Below, one piece after another: positions 6,756 to 41,922 of a stretch of DNA of 64,000 nt. Source of the stretch: an uncultured Heliomicrobium sp. GTDB lineage: Bacteria > Acidobacteriota > Blastocatellia > RBC074. The stretch spans positions 30,642-94,641 of the forward strand of contig CAZRXE010000825.1 in assembly GCA_964603695.1 (NCBI GenBank). Direction: 5' to 3'. Made by a program: the position numbers and the translations under genes. The notes beneath the pieces are model-generated. The model did no database searches. It saw nothing but the letters and a program-made list of their open reading frames with translations, and was not told the DNA's origin. Within the stretch, counting starts at the first letter, position 1. Each line of letters begins with the position of its first letter.

Positions 6756-6777
6756 CAAAGGCGGGAGGGGCCTTTTT
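6756..6777. terminator. Candidate bidirectional intrinsic terminator between two convergent genes.
   Basis: 'AAAGGCGGGAGGGGCCTTTTT' forms a short GC stem with a T-run. It overlaps the stop codon of the minus-strand kinase gene. Confidence 0.35.
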
Positions 6778-9769
6778 ATACCTCATTCCGCATCCGATGA
6801 AATTCCGCTTCGAGTTGATCGAAGGTACTCTGGGCTTTTTCCAGTGCCTGGTTGCGTCCGGCGCGCTCTAATTCCGCGCTCAATTTGGTTAGGGACTCAG
6901 CTCCGGGAATGTAGGAGGAGCTTCCTTTCAGGCTATGCGCCGAAGTCGTTAATTGCGCGAAATCGCTTTGGCCGAGGGCCTCTCTCATCGCGGTCAGATG
7001 TATGGGAGTGTCCATCAGGTAAAGCGTCAATAACTCTCGTTGAATTTCTTCGGCCTCTTCATCAGAAAAAATATCTCCGAGGGAATGCGTCGAAGAGGGT
7101 GGTTCGATATGTTGATGGCGGGCTTTTCCAGCGCCTTCCAGCGCGTGTTCCAGTGCCGCCAGTTTCACGGGTTTGGAAATGTAATCGTCCATGCCGACGG
7201 CCAGGCACATTTCCCGGTCGCTGGCCATGGCGTTGGCGGTCAAGGCGACGATGTACGGGCGTTCAGCCTTGGGCCACCATTGACAGACTTGCCGCGTCGC
7301 TTCCAGGCCGTCCATCTCAGGCATTTGCATGTCCATCAAGACCACGTCGTAAGACCGTTGGCGCAAAGCCGCGAGGGCTTCCAGGCCGTTTGAAACGACG
7401 TCGCATTCGTAGCCCAGCGTGCCGAGCAACGCGCAGGCGACTTTTTGATTGATTTGATTGTCTTCAGCCAGCAGGATGCGCAAAGGCCAGCGCGCGGCAA
7501 GATCTCTTTCCACCTTGTGTACGCCCGGCAACAAGGGAGTGGAGAATGTTTGAGAAGAAAATTGGGTCAGCAAAATGTTGTACAGTTGCGAGGGTTTGAC
7601 CGGCTTGGGCAGGACGGCAAGGAAGTGCTGGCTGTCTGCCGCCACTTCGCGTTGCAAGGAAGCCGCCAACAAGATGATCTGTGGAGCGCGTCCTTTGGCT
7701 TGCTGCCGAATCGTTTCGGCCAGTTTCGAGCCATCGGTTTCTGGCGGGCAATGATCCAGCAACGCCACATCAAACAGTGCGCCTTGGGCGAGCAAGCTCA
7801 AGGCTTCGTCCGGCGAAGCGCAAGCCACGGGATTGAGTCCCCAGAGTCGCAATTGATCGGCCAACGCCTGCCGGGTCAAAGGATGATCGTCCACGAGCAA
7901 CACCTGTTTGCCGCGGAAAACGGCGAGAGATTCCAGCACCGGTGAAGAAGATTTTTGCGCCGGCTCGCCAGCTACTTGGGACACGATGGTGAAGGAAAAA
8001 GTCGTGCCTTTGCCGGCCTCGCTTTCGACGCGGATTGATCCGCCCATCAATTCACACAGGCGTTTGCAAATGGCCAGGCCTAATCCTGTACCGCCGAAAC
8101 GGCGGGTGGTGGACGCGTCCACCTGGCTGAACATCTGGAACAGTCGCCCCATTTGTTCGGCAGGAATCCCGATGCCCGTGTCCTTGACATCAAATTCCAG
8201 CTCGTAACGATTTTCGGTCAGGGCTTTCGCTTTGACTGAAACGACGACTTCTCCGGCTGGGGTAAACTTGACGGCATTACTCAGTAAGTTGAGCAAGACT
8301 TGGCGCAATCGCACATCATCGCCGATCACATGCGTGGGAACGCCGGGATCAATCAGGTAAACCAATTCCAGCCCTTTTTCTCCGGCGTTGTGCGCAATGA
8401 CATCGAACGCGCCTTCCAAACAGGCGCGCAAGTCGAAGGGCCGCCGCTCCAATTCCAGTTTGCCGGATTCGATGCGGGAAAAATCCAGGATGTCGTTGAT
8501 GATTTTCAACAGCGCTTCGCTGCTGTTATGGATGACGGCAGCGTATTCGTGCTGAATGCCATCAAGGTTGGTTTTCAGCAACAGTTCCGTCATGCCGATA
8601 ATTGCATTCATCGGCGTGCGGATTTCGTGGCTCATATTGGCTAGAAATTCAGACTTGGCGCGCGTCGTCGCTTCGGCGGCGTCCTTCGCGCGTTGCATGG
8701 CTTCCGTCACCATCCGGCGTTCCGTGACATCGCGGTAGACCCACAAATGACCGCGATATTTATCGCCAATGAAAATCGGCACGTAATCGCGTTCATAGGT
8801 TCGCCCGTCGTGCATTTGGATTTCCTGGCCGGTGACGGCCTGGCGCGCGCCGTCACCATCGGTCAGGGGAGAAAGATAAGCCGCCGGTTCCGCCAACAGT
8901 CGTTTCGCTGGCTCGCCGATCAAGGAACATTTAGAAATGTCCACGCCGACCAATGCTTCCGGGGCTGCCGTCAATCCGAACAGGTCACAAAATTCCTGAT
9001 TCACCAGAATCACTTTTCCGGCTTCGTCTTCGACCAGAATGCCGGCTTGCAAATTGGCAATCAGAGAAGTCAGTTGTGAAGTGGTGGTTCGCAGTCCGTC
9101 TTCAACCAAGCGGCGATCTCTGATTTCTTGCCGTAATCGCCGATTGGTTTGCTGCAATTCTTTGGTGCGTTCCTGAATACGAACTTCCAATTCGTCGTGC
9201 GCCTGTCGCAAGGCCAGTTCGGCTTTTTTCCGGTCGCTAATGTCGCGAACGGTCACGATGCGTGCGCGTTGCTGGTTCCAAATGGTTTCCCTAAAACCGA
9301 TTTCCAGAGGAAACAGCGAGCCGTCTTTGCGCAAGCCGTACATTTCCAGATTCTCGGCGGGTTCGGACGGGAGAATGAAGGTCTCTTCCGTACAACTCGG
9401 CTGAACGCCCGGCGCTGCCTTCTCTAACTTGTCTAAATGCTGCGGCGCGTTGACGCCGACCGCCGAAACCAGCAGCCATTGCAACGGCAAGCCGATGACT
9501 TCCTCCGCCGCACAGCCGAATGTGCGCTCCGCCGCCGGATTGAAGGAACGAATCTGTTCCTGATCGTCCACCGTGATGACCCCATCGCTGATCGCGCTCA
9601 GGATGGAACTGGCATTTTTCTCTTTCGCCGCGAGCGTCTCGGCAAGCTGGCGTAGGTCTTGATTGGCCTTGTAAAGCTCAAGGCTTTTTTTCTCCAGCAG
9701 CGCCTCGGCTTCCAGGCGCGCCTGTCGTTCACGCCCCACCTGCCGTGTCAGTGCGTCTTCTATGCCCAT
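6776..9769 (-). CDS. Hybrid sensor histidine kinase, HnoK-like. Domain order: coiled-coil, PAS, PAS, HisKA, HATPase_c, REC, REC, HPt.
   Basis: H-box 'SHEIRTPMNAIIGMTELLL'. HATPase G-boxes 'DTGIGI', 'GGTGLGLAI'. Two receiver domains ('LLVDDHP..', 'ILLAEDNQINQ..DVVLMDMQMPEMDG'). C-terminal HPt 'HSLKGSSSYIPGAESL'. SD 'GAGGA' precedes the ATG at 9769. Confidence 0.9.
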   Translation of the reverse strand: MGIEDALTRQVGRERQARLEAEALLEKKSLELYKANQDLRQLAETLAAKEKNASSILSAISDGVITVDDQEQIRSFNPAAERTFGCAAEEVIGLPLQWLLVSAVGVNAPQHLDKLEKAAPGVQPSCTEETFILPSEPAENLEMYGLRKDGSLFPLEIGFRETIWNQQRARIVTVRDISDRKKAELALRQAHDELEVRIQERTKELQQTNRRLRQEIRDRRLVEDGLRTTTSQLTSLIANLQAGILVEDEAGKVILVNQEFCDLFGLTAAPEALVGVDISKCSLIGEPAKRLLAEPAAYLSPLTDGDGARQAVTGQEIQMHDGRTYERDYVPIFIGDKYRGHLWVYRDVTERRMVTEAMQRAKDAAEATTRAKSEFLANMSHEIRTPMNAIIGMTELLLKTNLDGIQHEYAAVIHNSSEALLKIINDILDFSRIESGKLELERRPFDLRACLEGAFDVIAHNAGEKGLELVYLIDPGVPTHVIGDDVRLRQVLLNLLSNAVKFTPAGEVVVSVKAKALTENRYELEFDVKDTGIGIPAEQMGRLFQMFSQVDASTTRRFGGTGLGLAICKRLCELMGGSIRVESEAGKGTTFSFTIVSQVAGEPAQKSSSPVLESLAVFRGKQVLLVDDHPLTRQALADQLRLWGLNPVACASPDEALSLLAQGALFDVALLDHCPPETDGSKLAETIRQQAKGRAPQIILLAASLQREVAADSQHFLAVLPKPVKPSQLYNILLTQFSSQTFSTPLLPGVHKVERDLAARWPLRILLAEDNQINQKVACALLGTLGYECDVVSNGLEALAALRQRSYDVVLMDMQMPEMDGLEATRQVCQWWPKAERPYIVALTANAMASDREMCLAVGMDDYISKPVKLAALEHALEGAGKARHQHIEPPSSTHSLGDIFSDEEAEEIQRELLTLYLMDTPIHLTAMREALGQSDFAQLTTSAHSLKGSSSYIPGAESLTKLSAELERAGRNQALEKAQSTFDQLEAEFHRMRNEV

Positions 9770-41500: not shown

Positions 41501-41922
41501 CTCCACGCCCCGTTTCCGCCAGCCCCAAGTCGCAATCGCGACTGCGCGTGCTGGTGGCGGAAGACAATATCGTCAATCAACGAGTGGCAGCTCTGATGTT
41601 GCAAAAACTGGGGTATGGGGCCGATATCGTCGGCAACGGTCTGGAAGCTTTGGAAGCCCTGCGCCGCCAGCCCTACGATATCGTCTTGATGGATTTACAA
41701 ATGCCTGAAATGGACGGCATGGAAGCCACCCGCCAAATTCGCGCCCAAAGTGCGGCCTGGAAACAGCCACGCATTATCGCCCTCACCGCCAATGCCATGA
41801 GAGGCGACCGGGAATTATGTCTGGCAGCGGGCATGGACGATTATCTGAGCAAACCCTTGCGGCTCGAAGATCTGCAAGCCGCGTTGCGGCGTTGCAGCGA
41901 GACGCCTTATAGCGATTTGTAG
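38551..41922 (+). CDS. Hybrid sensor histidine kinase with N-terminal HNOBA (H-NOX-associated PAS-like) domain. Domain order: HNOBA, GAF, PAS, PAS, HisKA, HATPase_c, REC, REC.
   Basis: 'FPFHFVLDRDLRIVQAGKAL', 'LKGQFLKTDATLIFLGSP', 'LIDFPVHDSTTHYLPLL' parallel the sGC beta1 HNOBA 'FPFHIIFDRDL', '[20 protein letters not shown]', 'LSDIPLHDATRDLVLL'. The PAS/HisKA/HATPase core is paralogous to the 6776-9769 kinase. Start is 5 nt after the H-NOX stop. Confidence 0.85.
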   Translation: MGEPRFGLSPKHFAEAFPFHFVLDRDLRIVQAGKALEQICRIKLGVAFSVAFYIVRPNLHPTFEAIGDRQNTLFLLRPNSVPIQLKGQFLKTDATLIFLGSPKITELRELDELELSLIDFPVHDSTTHYLPLLQTSKMALREANNLAEMLAKQRAEQSRINSELTVQFEVTRVLEIAASLEDAIPRLLSAIGGGLDCGVGEFWQVDEAKGRLYCVEMWSQSPEKHAAFAPGTQHFNFAKGEGLPGITWECGEPVGFENVTTNPRFLRAEAAQAAGLQSAWAFPLQSGGDVSGVMAFYCAQSLYSDERLQALLRNLSSQISQFIERKQAEKASREVETRYRVVAETASDAIITLDQESHILFANQAVERIFGHSREFLIGQKITCLMPKEMQTAHNRGITRYLRIKKRHISWSGVEVWGLHRDGHQIPLEVSFSDYVLKDQHLFTGFVRDISQRKQAEEQLRAANSRLAALLSNLQDGILVEDEERRLVLVNQEFCRIFGIEASPKAMVGADCAQAAENLKGIFADSALFLSRITAILAERQVVVNEEIALLDGRTLERNYVPIFAGEIYRGHLWSYRDITTRKRIKEELKEAKDLAESANLAKSQFLANMSHEIRTPMNAVIGLTGLLLDTELNAQQRDYLQTIRSSGEDLLTIINDILDFSKIESGRLELDWHPCDLRLCLEEALDLLATRAAEKKLELACVIESGTPAHVVTDATRLRQILVNLLSNAVKFTEAGEVVVQVLAEPLDNGQYEIRFSVRDSGIGIPAERMDRLFRSFSQVDASTTRTYGGTGLGLAVCKRLTKMLGGKIWAESEFGAGSTFFFTIRAEPAAPLNPPSEQGAAESLRHKRVLVVDDNATSRLILRRQMQDWEMLPRVTASAHEALSWIRAGETFDVALLDMRMPEMDGLRLASLIQAERGNSLPIAIFSSINRRELENERDELAGATLPEVAGVLTKPIKSGQLRTLLLNILAKSSTAAKPLLAPRPVSASPKSQSRLRVLVAEDNIVNQRVAALMLQKLGYGADIVGNGLEALEALRRQPYDIVLMDLQMPEMDGMEATRQIRAQSAAWKQPRIIALTANAMRGDRELCLAAGMDDYLSKPLRLEDLQAALRRCSETPYSDL

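Follow-up and report, generated by a model that had tools for sequence, protein, structure and literature searches.

The locus described here raises the question of whether an exopolysaccharide (EPS) cluster that carries genes for heme-based sensors at both of its ends is also controlled by them. In a 64-kb window (the whole stretch of DNA that was analysed) from an uncultured, soil-type member of the Acidobacteria (Blastocatellia-like), an hnoX1-HK1 pair and an hnoX2-HK2 pair lie at opposite ends of a single 27-kb EPS cluster. An earlier sequence-only reading had proposed these four H-NOX and kinase genes, all of which were recovered at the coordinates it gave, as well as an Acidobacteria-like genome, which agrees with nearest named homologues from Blastocatellia and with the presence of five tandem, duplicated MacB_PCD/FtsX permeases. 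We lean, by a small degree, toward the view that the two pairs are NO-responsive and functionally attached to this Wzy/Wza/Wzc-type EPS locus, with a phospho-switch as the connecting route.

Organization and Assembly of the Locus

The stretch between the two H-NOX operons (10432-37482) is one minus-strand Wzy/Wza/Wzc-type polysaccharide locus, which encodes Wzy_C and Poly_export/SLBB proteins, a Wzc-like protein, Bac_transf and WecG proteins, four GT4 and three GT2 glycosyltransferases, and acyltransferases. Independent Logan contigs match the window with 100% identity. All of them end at 8606-8612, within a segment of HK1 that is 76% identical to HK2 at the nucleotide level, and their other breakpoint is at 37941, where contigs from four samples all start, while the partner contig carrying the EPS locus has a computed end at approximately 37841. 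No independent contig among those examined crosses the junction between wzy and hnoX2, so that this junction is carried by the 120-kb assembly alone. These contig ends would fit a misassembly in which the hnoX2-HK2 segment was attached to the EPS locus at its wzy end. However, we consider such an artefact very improbable: the 120-kb contig containing the window spans the junction, both segments are present in the same set of samples, and an orthologous wzy adjoins hnoX2 in two related loci (L100 and L101) as well, which makes the adjacency biologically expected.

H-NOX Proteins and Their Likely Ligand

The gene hnoX1 (9779-10336, minus strand) encodes a stand-alone H-NOX protein of 185 aa and of the Shewanella/Kordia type (PF07700 HNOB, E=3e-45), whose best PDB matches are 6OCV (E=3e-47), Kordia 6BDE, and Shewanella 4U99. 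The first of these is the Shewanella woodyi H-NOX (bioRxiv 10.1101/2020.08.21.262071). The gene hnoX2 (37979-38545, plus strand) encodes a stand-alone protein of 188 aa and of the Nostoc/sGC type (PF07700 HNOB, E=4e-52), the best solved relatives of which are Nostoc Alr2278 (E=1e-65) and then sGC beta1 (E=1e-37). The profile search thus places both genes in the H-NOX family, and their assignment to different subfamilies by the earlier reading is borne out by these structural neighbors and by a sequence identity of only 23% between the two proteins. In an alignment with their relatives and Tt H-NOX (a reference sequence identical to PDB 1U4H), the proximal His, Pro115, Tyr131, Ser133, and Arg135 (Tt numbering) are invariant, and both proteins retain the proximal His, the Pro, and the YxSxR motif; conserved residues in H-NOX1 are H104, P117, Y133, S135, and R137. 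The heme-binding residues of H-NOX2 are conserved too, and Met stands in place of Tt Tyr140, as it does in Ns H-NOX.

In Tt H-NOX, bound O2 is stabilized by a hydrogen-bond network of Tyr140, Asn74, and Trp9, the equivalents of which are Leu, Leu, and Tyr in H-NOX1 and Met, Trp, and Ile in H-NOX2. Since the distal Tyr and Asn needed for O2 binding are absent from both proteins, each probably binds NO (or CO), and the O2 gating that had been suggested beside NO gating is unlikely. It might still be argued that the sensors respond to O2, CO, or the heme/thiol redox state instead of NO, considering that some H-NOX domains (e.g., Tt H-NOX) bind O2, that Nostoc-type H-NOX also binds CO, and that sequence cannot give ligand binding with certainty. 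Nevertheless, this appears highly unlikely in view of the missing O2-stabilizing network and of the closest solved relatives, namely the stand-alone H-NOX proteins of S. woodyi and Nostoc and sGC beta1, all of which are, to our knowledge, NO sensors that form no stable O2 complexes.

Hybrid Kinases

Both H-NOX genes show operon-like spacing with a hybrid kinase gene, as had been proposed, the hnoX1 stop codon lying 9 nt ahead of the HK1 start and that of hnoX2 5 nt ahead of the HK2 start. HK1 (6776-9769, minus strand; 997 aa) is a soluble hybrid histidine kinase with the Pfam architecture PAS-PAS-HisKA-HATPase-REC-REC-HPt and no predicted TM segment. Its sequence shows the H-box (MSHEIRTPMN), the Asp in each of the two REC domains, and an HSLKG motif in the HPt domain, and it is 57-60% identical to the kinases adjoining H-NOX1 orthologues in two related loci (L011 and L013). 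HK2 (38551-41922, plus strand; 1123 aa), also soluble, has the architecture HNOBA(H-NOXA)-GAF-PAS-PAS-HisKA-HATPase-REC-REC. Its HNOBA domain is detected by Pfam with E=2e-23, and its N-terminus matches the H-NOXA domain of a Nostoc punctiforme kinase (2P04, E=7e-16) and the PAS domain of sGC beta1.

The sensory N-termini therefore differ in the manner previously described (PAS-only in HK1, HNOBA-GAF in HK2), and an HPt domain is likewise confined to HK1, as Pfam detected none in HK2 and no HPt remnant was found downstream of it. Among HK2 orthologues, those in L100, L101, and L015 end in an HPt domain and that in L017 lacks it. The two kinases resemble paralogues, but the near-identical core reported by the sequence-only reading was not observed, their identity being 47% over 832 aa and 53% in the core from HisKA to REC2.

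Polysaccharide Genes and a Partner-Switching Module

The gene next to hnoX1 (10432-11922, minus strand; 496 aa) encodes a fusion of a nucleotidyltransferase-like N-terminus, a left-handed beta-helix (LbH), one TM segment, and a Bac_transf-like C-terminus, based on Pfam, NCBIfam, and TM prediction. Homologues of this fusion are recurrent neighbors directly upstream of both types of H-NOX gene, with 63-66% identity in L013 and L183 and 35% directly upstream of hnoX2 in L100 and L101. The EPS assembly genes that follow (11934-26610, minus strand; Pfam, NCBIfam, and hydropathy) encode a Bac_transf-fragment/WecG fusion, an initiating phosphoglycosyl transferase, three GT2 and three GT4 enzymes, a hexapeptide acyltransferase, a weak ATP-grasp match, a secreted protein of 737 aa that belongs to no known family, and a candidate flippase of 568 aa with multiple TM segments. 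In L013, the genes upstream of hnoX1 include orthologues of those at 13321-18502, which are 58-90% identical and keep the same order. The export pair, also on the minus strand, consists of a Wzc-like co-polymerase/ATPase (26764-29019, AAA_31) and a Wza-like Poly_export/SLBB protein (29016-30056), for which the NCBIfam eps_fam matches fall below the curated cut-off. At higher coordinates on this strand (30075-32580) Pfam identifies an inorganic pyrophosphatase, a GT4 enzyme, and another hexapeptide acyltransferase, whose gene probably starts at an internal ATG (32580) that has a ribosome-binding site.

The locus ends in a Wzy_C-family polymerase/ligase-like membrane protein (36100-37482, minus strand; 460 aa; PF04932, E=5e-12), whose orthologues lie within the hnoX2 cassette of L100 and L101 (59-65% identity) and which is divergent from hnoX2. 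The 496-bp region between them (37483-37978) is AT-richer than its flanks, includes the 37941 breakpoint mentioned above, and contained no promoter or terminator signal above shuffled expectation. Sigma-70 promoter and terminator scans in general did not exceed that expectation, and operon structure was not resolved by them. Neither a sigma54 regulator nor a sigma54 promoter signal was found in the window, so the comparison of this locus with syp made by the earlier reading is only partly right.

That reading had not mentioned a three-gene module within the EPS locus, all on the minus strand. It comprises a single-domain receiver (35018-35461; 147 aa; PF00072, E=3e-26), a fusion of a GAF-PP2C (SpoIIE) phosphatase with an RsbW-type serine kinase (32934-35021; 695 aa; SpoIIE E=1e-42, HATPase_c_2 E=3e-25, with weak NCBIfam matches to RsbW, SiaA, and SpoIIAB), and a STAS protein of the anti-sigma-antagonist type (32612-32962; 116 aa; PF01740, E=4.5e-21). 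The receiver has the acceptor-site residues DD, D, S, and K, and its gene overlaps the PP2C/kinase gene by 4 nt (translationally coupled); the STAS protein carries the phospho-serine motif DSSGLG, and its gene overlaps the 3' end of the PP2C/kinase gene. The receiver is a candidate acceptor of the HPt phosphate, and this partner switch is the most probable link between the H-NOX kinases and EPS.

Conservation in Relatives and Other Phyla

In the closest relatives, orthologous EPS genes adjoin each of the two operons, in line with the linkage originally proposed. L011 contains the receiver (73% identity), PP2C/kinase (58%), and STAS (71%, in the same position) genes together with NTP-transferase, hexapeptide transferase, H-NOX1 (66%), and HK1 (60%); L013 and L183 contain orthologous EPS genes (58-90%) followed by H-NOX1 (67-68%) and HK1; and L100 and L101 contain STAS, wzy, the NTP/LbH fusion, H-NOX2 (67-69%), an HNOBA kinase (62-65%), and a REC-GerE regulator. 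Both cassettes occur in one binned Blastocatellia MAG (GCA_033763135.1) and one metagenome (ERZ27299533). In the relatives, however, the cassettes are found on different contigs and have other flanks, strict two-sided bracketing being specific to this genome.

Comparable gene sets are observed in unrelated phyla, where H-NOX/kinase pairs are again associated with HPt, REC-PP2C, or STAS genes and NTP-transferase genes. In Thiothrix (L045, L084, and L094), NTP-transferase/hexapeptide, STAS, and REC-PP2C genes are divergent from H-NOX and kinase-REC genes; L020, an unclassified MAG, has the order HPt, REC-PP2C, H-NOX, and kinase-REC (x3); and in L085 (Puniceicoccales) a STAS gene precedes Bac_transf, LbH, H-NOX, and kinase genes. 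The linkage to EPS fades quickly with distance: no EPS genes were found near H-NOX1 relatives of 60% identity or less (L103, L185, and L186) or near H-NOX2 relatives of 63-66% identity (L017, L018, and L184), and among 80 diverse H-NOX1-type loci approximately five have EPS genes within 10 kb and approximately six have partner-switch genes, several of these positive loci coming from one genus.

Such rarity in other phyla, together with the unrelated contexts of the three H-NOX2 relatives just named, could mean that the adjacency is incidental, the operons controlling c-di-GMP turnover, motility, or a stress response and having been brought here by rearrangement of a variable region. On the hnoX2 side, rearrangement is suggested by the inversion of wzy, by the missing HPt and REC-GerE, by a dip in GC content, and by a downstream gene for a DUF4143 ATPase. 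Nonetheless, we regard this explanation as improbable, because EPS and partner-switch orthologues stay beside both cassettes in all three closest H-NOX1 and the two closest H-NOX2 relatives although the outer flanks differ among them, and because a similar set has been assembled independently around H-NOX in Thiothrix, the Puniceicoccales MAG, and the unclassified MAG.

Proposed Signaling Route

A functional attachment of the two pairs to the EPS locus could operate as follows. Each heme protein would bind NO, favored over O2 because neither has a distal hydrogen-bonding pocket, and the NO-bound form would reduce the autophosphorylation of the soluble kinase paired with it. H-NOX2 would probably dock on the sGC-like H-NOXA (HNOBA) domain of HK2. 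Phosphate would normally flow from His to REC to HPt, with HK2 using either the HPt of HK1, the only one in the window, or another HPt in trans. The HPt may then feed the single-domain receiver, which would tip the adjacent protein toward either its PP2C phosphatase or its RsbW-type kinase activity and thereby determine the phosphorylation state of the STAS protein. The latter would switch EPS production on or off post-translationally and, by analogy, NO would turn it off.

Alternatively, the pairs may regulate EPS mainly at the transcriptional level through a REC-GerE-type regulator encoded elsewhere in this genome, in which case the receiver, PP2C/kinase, and STAS genes would be a separate input under the control of a different kinase or of the GAF domain within the module. 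A REC-GerE DNA-binding regulator directly follows the HNOBA kinase in L100, L101, and L102, which points to a transcriptional output, and in L011 the gene directly upstream of the receiver encodes another, larger hybrid kinase (1576 aa, PAS/GAF) that has an HPt of its own and could be the true phosphate donor of that receiver. On the other hand, the 64-kb window showed no gene for a REC-GerE or any other DNA-binding regulator, and partner-switch genes recur beside H-NOX/kinase pairs in unrelated phyla, once with a stand-alone HPt. We therefore see the transcriptional reading as a serious but rather unlikely one; the two outputs are not mutually exclusive.

Comparison with Known Systems

In Vibrio fischeri, the syp EPS is controlled by HahK, a kinase that is inhibited by NO and HnoX and signals via SypF (HPt) to a transcriptional arm (SypG) and a post-translational arm (SypE/SypA) (PMC12369376), the use of both arms also being compatible with a transcriptional output here. 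The logic is the same as that proposed for the present locus. Control of an EPS locus by NO, H-NOX, and a kinase was thus already established, and what is new relative to the novelty first claimed is the arrangement and the lineage. In Pseudomonas aeruginosa, NO and NosP inhibit NahK, which acts via HptB on HsbR, a receiver with kinase and phosphatase activities, and HsbA, an anti-anti-sigma factor (PMC5085249; bioRxiv 10.1101/2025.09.24.678285), a chain that follows the same logic as the suggested route from H-NOX through HPt and REC to PP2C/kinase and STAS. If true, the arrangement, which we grade as credible, would be a new wiring of the known theme that NO controls biofilm sugar.

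H-NOX Proteins of Two Subfamilies

The two small genes hnoX1 (9779-10336, minus strand) and hnoX2 (37979-38545, plus strand) both encode H-NOX proteins. In Pfam scans, they matched the HNOB profile (PF07700, cut-off of 25.5 bits) with 154.5 bits (E=3e-45) and 176.7 bits (E=4e-52), respectively, and each match covers profile positions 1-162 of 163. The family assignment made in the sequence-only reading thus holds for both proteins, and its gene coordinates were borne out by ORF listing and Pfam scans. An alignment with nine relatives and Tt H-NOX (reference identical to PDB 1U4H) revealed that H102, P115, Y131, S133, and R135 (Tt numbering) are invariant, which means that both H-NOX1 and H-NOX2 keep the proximal His that ligates heme, the Pro that distorts it, and the propionate-binding Y-x-S-x-R motif. 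The O2-type distal hydrogen-bond network (Tyr140/Asn74/Trp9) is absent from both proteins in the same alignment, the corresponding residues being Leu/Leu/Tyr in H-NOX1 and Met/Trp/Ile in H-NOX2. Because this network is replaced in both, the two proteins are, judging from sequence, far more likely to be sensors of NO (or CO) than of O2, and the O2 half of the earlier proposal of NO- or O2-gated control is unlikely.

The best structure matches agree with the suggestion that two different subfamilies are present. H-NOX1 belongs to the Shewanella type; its top match is the S. woodyi structure (6OCV, E=3e-47), followed by Kordia and Shewanella (4U99, E=5e-20). H-NOX2 is of the Nostoc/sGC type, with matches to Nostoc Alr2278 (E=1e-65) and sGC beta1 (E=1e-37), and is 58% identical to its Leptolyngbya homologue P0058. 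The two proteins share 23% identity.

Hybrid Kinases HK1 and HK2

In each pair, a kinase gene lies downstream of the H-NOX gene on the same strand, separated by 9 nt in the case of HK1 (6776-9769, minus strand) and by 5 nt in the case of HK2 (38551-41922, plus strand), and HisKA and HATPase_c are present in both kinases, consistent with the operon-like organization that had been proposed. The domain architecture is PAS-PAS-HisKA-HATPase-REC-REC-HPt in HK1 and HNOBA-GAF-PAS-PAS-HisKA-HATPase-REC-REC in HK2, so that the sensory N-termini differ (PAS-only versus HNOBA-GAF), as already noted from the sequence. The H-box (SHEIRTPMN), both receiver aspartates, and the HPt motif (HSLKG) are readable in the kinase sequences, and no transmembrane (TM) segments were predicted in either protein. 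The HPt domain was found by Pfam in HK1 only, again as described before; the HK2 orthologues of three related loci (L100, L101, and L015) have such a domain, and a search of the non-coding gaps of the window with the proteins of relatives detected no HPt remnant 3′ of HK2.

The N-terminus of HK2 contains an HNOBA domain (PF07701, E=2e-23) and matches both the H-NOXA domain of a Nostoc punctiforme kinase (2P04, E=7e-16) and the PAS domain of sGC beta1 (residues 207-281, E=3e-13). HNOB and HNOBA were reportedly defined by Iyer et al. in 2003. The presence of HNOBA in the kinase partner of a Nostoc/sGC-type H-NOX is conserved in loci L015, L017, L100, L101, and L099.

HK1 and HK2 had been described as near-identical paralogs. 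They do look like paralogues, but identity reaches only 47% over 832 residues and 53% in the HisKA-REC2 core. Among H-NOX-linked kinases, to which the core comparison was confined, the HK1 core is 60-62% identical to its own orthologues, 51-53% to HK2-type kinases, and 48% or less to kinases from other phyla; the HK2 core is 63-67% identical to its own orthologues and 52-54% to HK1-type kinases, closer than to the other H-NOX-linked kinases sampled. Since the two types are nearer to each other in this ranking than to kinases of other phyla, the HK1 and HK2 families look like sister paralogues, and their duplication would be older than the split of the relatives compared.

Polysaccharide Locus and Embedded Partner-Switching Module

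All genes at 10432-37482, the EPS locus between the two H-NOX/kinase pairs, lie on the minus strand. Profile matches identified core components of a Wzx/Wzy-dependent pathway, namely an initiating phosphoglycosyl transferase (Bac_transf, E=5e-66), a Wzy-type polymerase (Wzy_C, E=5e-12), a Wza-type exporter (Poly_export/SLBB, E=4e-19), and a Wzc-type co-polymerase (AAA_31 plus an eps_fam domain, the latter below its curated cut-off). Also encoded are glycosyltransferases of the GT2 (three) and GT4 (four) families, a pair of hexapeptide acyltransferases, a weakly matching ATP-grasp protein, and a pyrophosphatase. A 568-aa protein with approximately nine hydrophobic segments and no Pfam/NCBIfam match (21077-22783, minus strand) is a candidate Wzx-like flippase. 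The locus also includes a fusion gene (10432-11922, minus strand) whose product has a nucleotidyltransferase-like domain at its N-terminus combined with LbH, one TM segment, and part of a Bac_transf domain (hereafter NTP-LbH fusion). In a second fusion (11934-13313, minus strand), a C-terminal Bac_transf fragment is joined to a WecG/TagA glycosyltransferase, and beside these two odd genes lies a small Bac_transf gene that is complete. A 737-aa secreted protein (16289-18502, minus strand) has a signal-peptide-like N-terminus and no Pfam/NCBIfam match, and its GNENWNG motif is reminiscent of clan-A glycoside hydrolases.

Inside the EPS locus lies a regulatory trio that the sequence-only reading had overlooked. 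It consists of a single-domain receiver of 147 aa (35018-35461, minus strand), a GAF-PP2C(SpoIIE)-HATPase_c_2 protein (32934-35021, minus strand; SpoIIE, E=1e-42; HATPase_c_2, E=3e-25), and a 116-aa STAS protein (32612-32962, minus strand; PF01740, E=4.5e-21) with a phospho-serine motif (DSSGLG). The receiver and PP2C/kinase genes share a 4-nt overlap, and the STAS gene overlaps the 3′ end of the latter. The receiver is not fused to the PP2C/kinase protein, which carries its GAF domain at the N-terminus. Judging by these domains, the three proteins form a partner-switching module of the RsbU/RsbW/RsbV, HsbR/HsbA, or SypE/SypA kind. No sigma or anti-sigma gene was recognized in the window by Pfam scans, and the binding partner of the STAS protein could be the kinase domain of the PP2C/kinase protein itself.

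No Sigma54_activat protein is present in the window, and the sigma54 pattern (-24/-12; TGGCAC-N5-TTGCW, up to two mismatches) gave 41 matches versus 48.8 expected, none of them in the relevant intergenic regions; a SypG-like route within the window was thereby ruled out. Scans for sigma70 promoters and terminators (6300-10600 and 35300-38100) gave counts not above shuffled expectation, so the operon boundaries are not settled by them, and an Rfam scan of the whole window returned no match.

GC content is 50-52% at 34000-40000 versus 56-63% elsewhere in the window. This low-GC zone, which takes in the receiver gene, the 640 bp of non-coding DNA at 35462-36099, wzy, the spacer between the divergent genes, hnoX2, and the first part of HK2, would fit a junction or a more recent arrival of the wzy-hnoX2 segment. 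Other genes of the window include a subtilase with a C-terminal SLH domain (47-2272) and a Kelch-repeat protein (45328-46338) containing a 147-nt periodic DNA repeat (45690-46199). Five tandem paralogues of approximately 800-885 aa (47860-57758 and 59316-61973) are duplicated ABC permeases with two MacB_PCD and two FtsX domains each, and their genes share DNA segments that are 60-77% identical. Arrays of this kind are typical of Acidobacteriota, and the array agrees with the assignment to this phylum. The non-coding gap ahead of the fifth permease gene contains 185 nt (58667-58851) that are 83% identical to 54453-54637 inside the third, probably a gene fragment left from recombination among the paralogues.

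Conservation of the Linkage in Relatives and Other Phyla

Linkage to EPS and partner-switch genes was found in all three loci of the H-NOX1 clade (66-68% identity). In L011, the order is a big PAS/GAF hybrid kinase-HPt, REC (73%), PP2C-kinase (58%), STAS (71%), NTP-transferase, hexapeptide transferase, H-NOX1, and HK1 (60%). In L013 and L183, orthologous EPS genes (58-90% identity) are followed by two inserted genes, H-NOX1, and HK1. As the big kinase directly precedes the REC gene in L011, control of the receiver by another kinase of this type is a serious rival to its control by HK1.

The two closest H-NOX2 relatives (L100 and L101/L102, 67-69% identity) share the order STAS, wzy (59-65%, orthologous to the wzy gene of the window), with or without a GT4 gene, NTP-LbH fusion, H-NOX2, an HNOBA kinase with HPt, and a REC-GerE regulator. 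The REC-GerE gene that these relatives encode after their HK2-type kinase makes a transcriptional arm a serious rival, complementary to the partner-switching route; however, a search of the window's non-coding gaps with the relatives' proteins found no REC-GerE remnant, nor a second STAS or a second NTP-LbH. The H-NOX2 proteins of L015/L016 (GCA_035331565.1 and GCA_035330305.1, Blastocatellia; L015 coordinates 2172-13869) are 64% identical and adjoin a different polysaccharide set. Their neighbors are a chitin-synthase-like GT2, a PHP protein, a REC-PIG-L deacetylase, a TPR protein, a sigma54 response regulator, and an ATP-grasp protein, and the HK2-type partner is HNOBA-GAF-PAS-kinase-REC-REC-HPt. 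The H-NOX2 sensor family is thus found in sugar-polymer contexts of two kinds. No EPS genes were found at the H-NOX2 loci L017/L018 (66%) and L184 (63%), the last of which keeps an NTP-LbH fragment.

Attachment to EPS genes in neighboring genomes, on which the earlier proposal depended, was therefore seen in L011, L013, L183, L100, and L101. Both cassettes also occur together in one Blastocatellia MAG (GCA_033763135.1) and in one metagenome (ERZ27299533), on separate contigs in each, and the outer flank of L101 is unrelated (PhoD and a sugar-isomerase-like gene). For these reasons, the dual H-NOX system and its attachment to EPS-type genes are conserved, and the bracketing of a single locus, present in this window as first described, is particular to this genome.

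Beyond these relatives, the linkage is rare. Three loci with H-NOX1 at 60% identity (L185, L186, and L103) have no EPS genes nearby. Among 80 diverse H-NOX1-type loci, a kinase follows H-NOX in approximately 66, EPS genes lie within 10 kb in approximately five, and partner-switch genes occur in approximately six; in this background, from a genome-collection scan with the H-NOX1 alignment, all homologues are 49-58% identical and belong to other phyla, Blastocatellia being absent. A metagenome scan with the closest H-NOX1 sequences returned mostly contigs of 1-6 kb and no further EPS-linked locus. Related gene sets nevertheless recur across phyla. Thiothrix (L045, L084, and L094) has NTP-transferase/hexapeptide, STAS, and REC-PP2C genes divergent from H-NOX and a kinase-REC gene; L020 has HPt, REC-PP2C, H-NOX, and kinase-REC x3; and the Puniceicoccales MAG locus L085 has STAS, then Bac_transf, LbH, H-NOX, and kinase. 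These sets are striking convergences.

The NTP-LbH fusion or its paralogue is the most constant neighbor of H-NOX genes of both types, and the fusions (NTP-LbH-Bac_transf) just upstream of the two types are paralogous (35% identity over approximately 450 aa). Because both the kinases and these upstream genes are paralogous, the comparison suggests that the whole cassette was duplicated and the sensor then exchanged. In Leptolyngbya sp. 'hensonii' (L099, 5178-10015), a Nostoc-type H-NOX lies between an HNOBA-GAF-PAS-GGDEF-EAL protein and an HNOBA-HisKA-HATPase kinase; as HNOBA proteins stand on both sides, one heme sensor may serve two partners there.

Assembly Junctions and the 3′ End of HK2

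Independent contigs from Logan match the window with 100% identity. They end in a 105-nt stretch common to HK1 and HK2 (76% identity) and also at 37941, between wzy and hnoX2. The coding similarity of HK1 and HK2, which supplies the only long repeats here, explains the breaks at 8606 and ~40406-40530. Position 37941, 38 nt upstream of hnoX2, is the exact start of contigs from four independent sequencing runs, and a hairpin with a 13-bp stem (37901-37929) lies just before it; window repeats were ruled out as the cause of this break, since none accounts for it. The wzy-hnoX2 join is present in the 120-kb assembly only, and is plausible because L100 and L101 show the same neighborhood.

Directly 3′ of the HK2 stop codon (41923-43512 region) lies an imperfect inverted repeat (GATGAACACGGATGAAC ... 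GTTCACCCGTGTTCATCCGTG), followed by an AAA_14/DUF4143 ATPase gene. As this gene stands where relatives have the HPt domain and the REC-GerE regulator, a rearrangement at the 3′ end of HK2 is suggested.

Proposed Circuit and Its Significance

Conserved synteny yields a concrete, testable circuit, whose function we infer from sequence. Built on the observed architectures, motifs, and gene order, with ligand, sign, route, and target proposed by analogy with Vibrio fischeri and Pseudomonas aeruginosa, it would run as follows: in response to NO, H-NOX1 and H-NOX2 would inhibit HK1 and HK2; the HPt domain of HK1 would signal to the 147-aa receiver, and this in turn to the PP2C/kinase protein, the STAS protein, and EPS; NO would thereby probably lower EPS. 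As HK2 lacks an HPt domain, unlike its L100, L101, and L015 orthologues, it would use that of HK1 or another one.

A broader joint reading, which we put forward tentatively and think rather unlikely to hold in full, would see a cross-phylum supermodule in which H-NOX and a hybrid kinase act through HPt on a REC-controlled PP2C(/Ser-kinase) and STAS, gating polysaccharide post-translationally, with a Blastocatellia cassette duplicated with a sensor swap, and two NO sensors converging on one HPt and one EPS locus. As parts of this reading, the cassette of NTP-LbH fusion, H-NOX, and hybrid kinase appears to have been duplicated in the Blastocatellia clade, and the Shewanella-type H-NOX of one copy appears to have been replaced by a Nostoc/sGC-type H-NOX with an H-NOXA-GAF docking module; the STAS protein possibly acts on the membrane-anchored nucleotidyltransferase/LbH/phosphoglycosyl-transferase-like enzyme.

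Knowledge of H-NOX signaling is almost confined to Proteobacteria, with structures also available from cyanobacteria and Thermoanaerobacter. The arrangement had been called undescribed, and in the literature searched we found no description of it and no link of H-NOX signaling to Acidobacteria, partner-switching modules, or a position inside an EPS locus; however, the principle that NO acts through H-NOX and a kinase on biofilm polysaccharide is already established, and each component belongs to a known family as an ordinary member. The value of the system is accordingly that of a variant and not of a new concept. Four features are new, and the literature searched describes none of them: the lineage (Acidobacteriota); the attachment of two H-NOX subfamilies and their sister kinases to a single EPS locus; the split partner switch, similar to HsbR/SypE, that is embedded in this locus; and the repeated occurrence, in several phyla, of H-NOX/kinase together with HPt, REC-PP2C, STAS, and NTP-LbH genes. 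If the circuit is true, it would give direct mechanistic access to the way in which Acidobacteria, abundant in soil, adjust exopolysaccharide (soil aggregation and biofilm) to NO from nitrifiers and denitrifiers. With sensor, kinase, HPt, receiver, PP2C/kinase, STAS, and EPS enzymes in one compact locus, it would also be a system in which the target of STAS proteins of the SypA/HsbA type could be sought. It would also provide a natural 'split sGC' (H-NOX and H-NOXA in trans) beside a paralogous kinase that uses the other H-NOX type, a pair useful for studying H-NOX signal transfer to partners.

Comparison with Known Systems

As in Nostoc and other cyanobacteria (PDB 2O09 and 2P04), a stand-alone H-NOX2 is followed by an HNOBA kinase, an order also seen in Leptolyngbya L099. 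The Leptolyngbya kinase is HNOBA-HisKA-HATPase only, whereas HK2 adds GAF, two PAS, and two REC domains, and the genomic context here, unlike in the cyanobacterial systems, is EPS. H-NOX1 resembles the Shewanella systems (S. oneidensis HnoX/HnoK; S. woodyi 6OCV) in being a stand-alone protein of the 'MKG...' type in an operon with a soluble kinase. Shewanella H-NOX systems have biofilm-related output through c-di-GMP enzymes or response regulators; in contrast, Pfam scans found no GGDEF, EAL, or HD-GYP genes within the window, and we know of no Shewanella HnoK that is a REC-REC-HPt hybrid.

In V. fischeri, NO-bound HnoX inhibits HahK, which feeds the HPt domain of SypF; SypF then acts on the sigma54 regulator SypG and on the receiver-kinase-phosphatase SypE, and SypE, by setting how far the STAS protein SypA is phosphorylated, governs production of the SYP polysaccharide (PMC12369376). 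The hnoX-kinase operon and the proposed wiring from HPt through a receiver-controlled Ser kinase/PP2C to STAS would be alike in the window. The description of the EPS locus as syp-like stands at the domain level (Wza-like, Wzc-like, Wzy_C-like, glycosyltransferase, acetyltransferase, and Bac_transf genes), but a SypG-type sigma54 regulator and a sigma54 promoter signal are lacking. SypE is one protein (kinase-REC-PP2C), whereas the window encodes a separate REC and then a GAF-PP2C-kinase. To our knowledge, hnoX-hahK of V. fischeri lies outside the syp locus; in the window, two H-NOX pairs of different subfamilies flank the EPS genes, and the phylum is Acidobacteriota.

In P. aeruginosa, NO acts via NosP, which is co-transcribed with the hybrid kinase NahK, to inhibit autophosphorylation of NahK; HptB receives its phosphate from NahK and in turn makes HsbR act on the STAS (anti-anti-sigma) protein HsbA as a phosphatase instead of a kinase, the outcome being biofilm versus motility (PMC5085249; bioRxiv 10.1101/2025.09.24.678285). 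Here too, a heme NO sensor (predicted) is paired with a hybrid kinase, and HPt, receiver, kinase/phosphatase, and STAS are all encoded. The sensor is H-NOX instead of NosP, the HPt is the C-terminal domain of HK1 whereas HptB is a free protein, and the receiver, fused in HsbR, is split off, with GAF added to the PP2C/kinase protein. The known HsbA partners FlgM and HsbD have no counterpart in the window, and, unlike in P. aeruginosa, the partner-switch module is embedded in the EPS locus.
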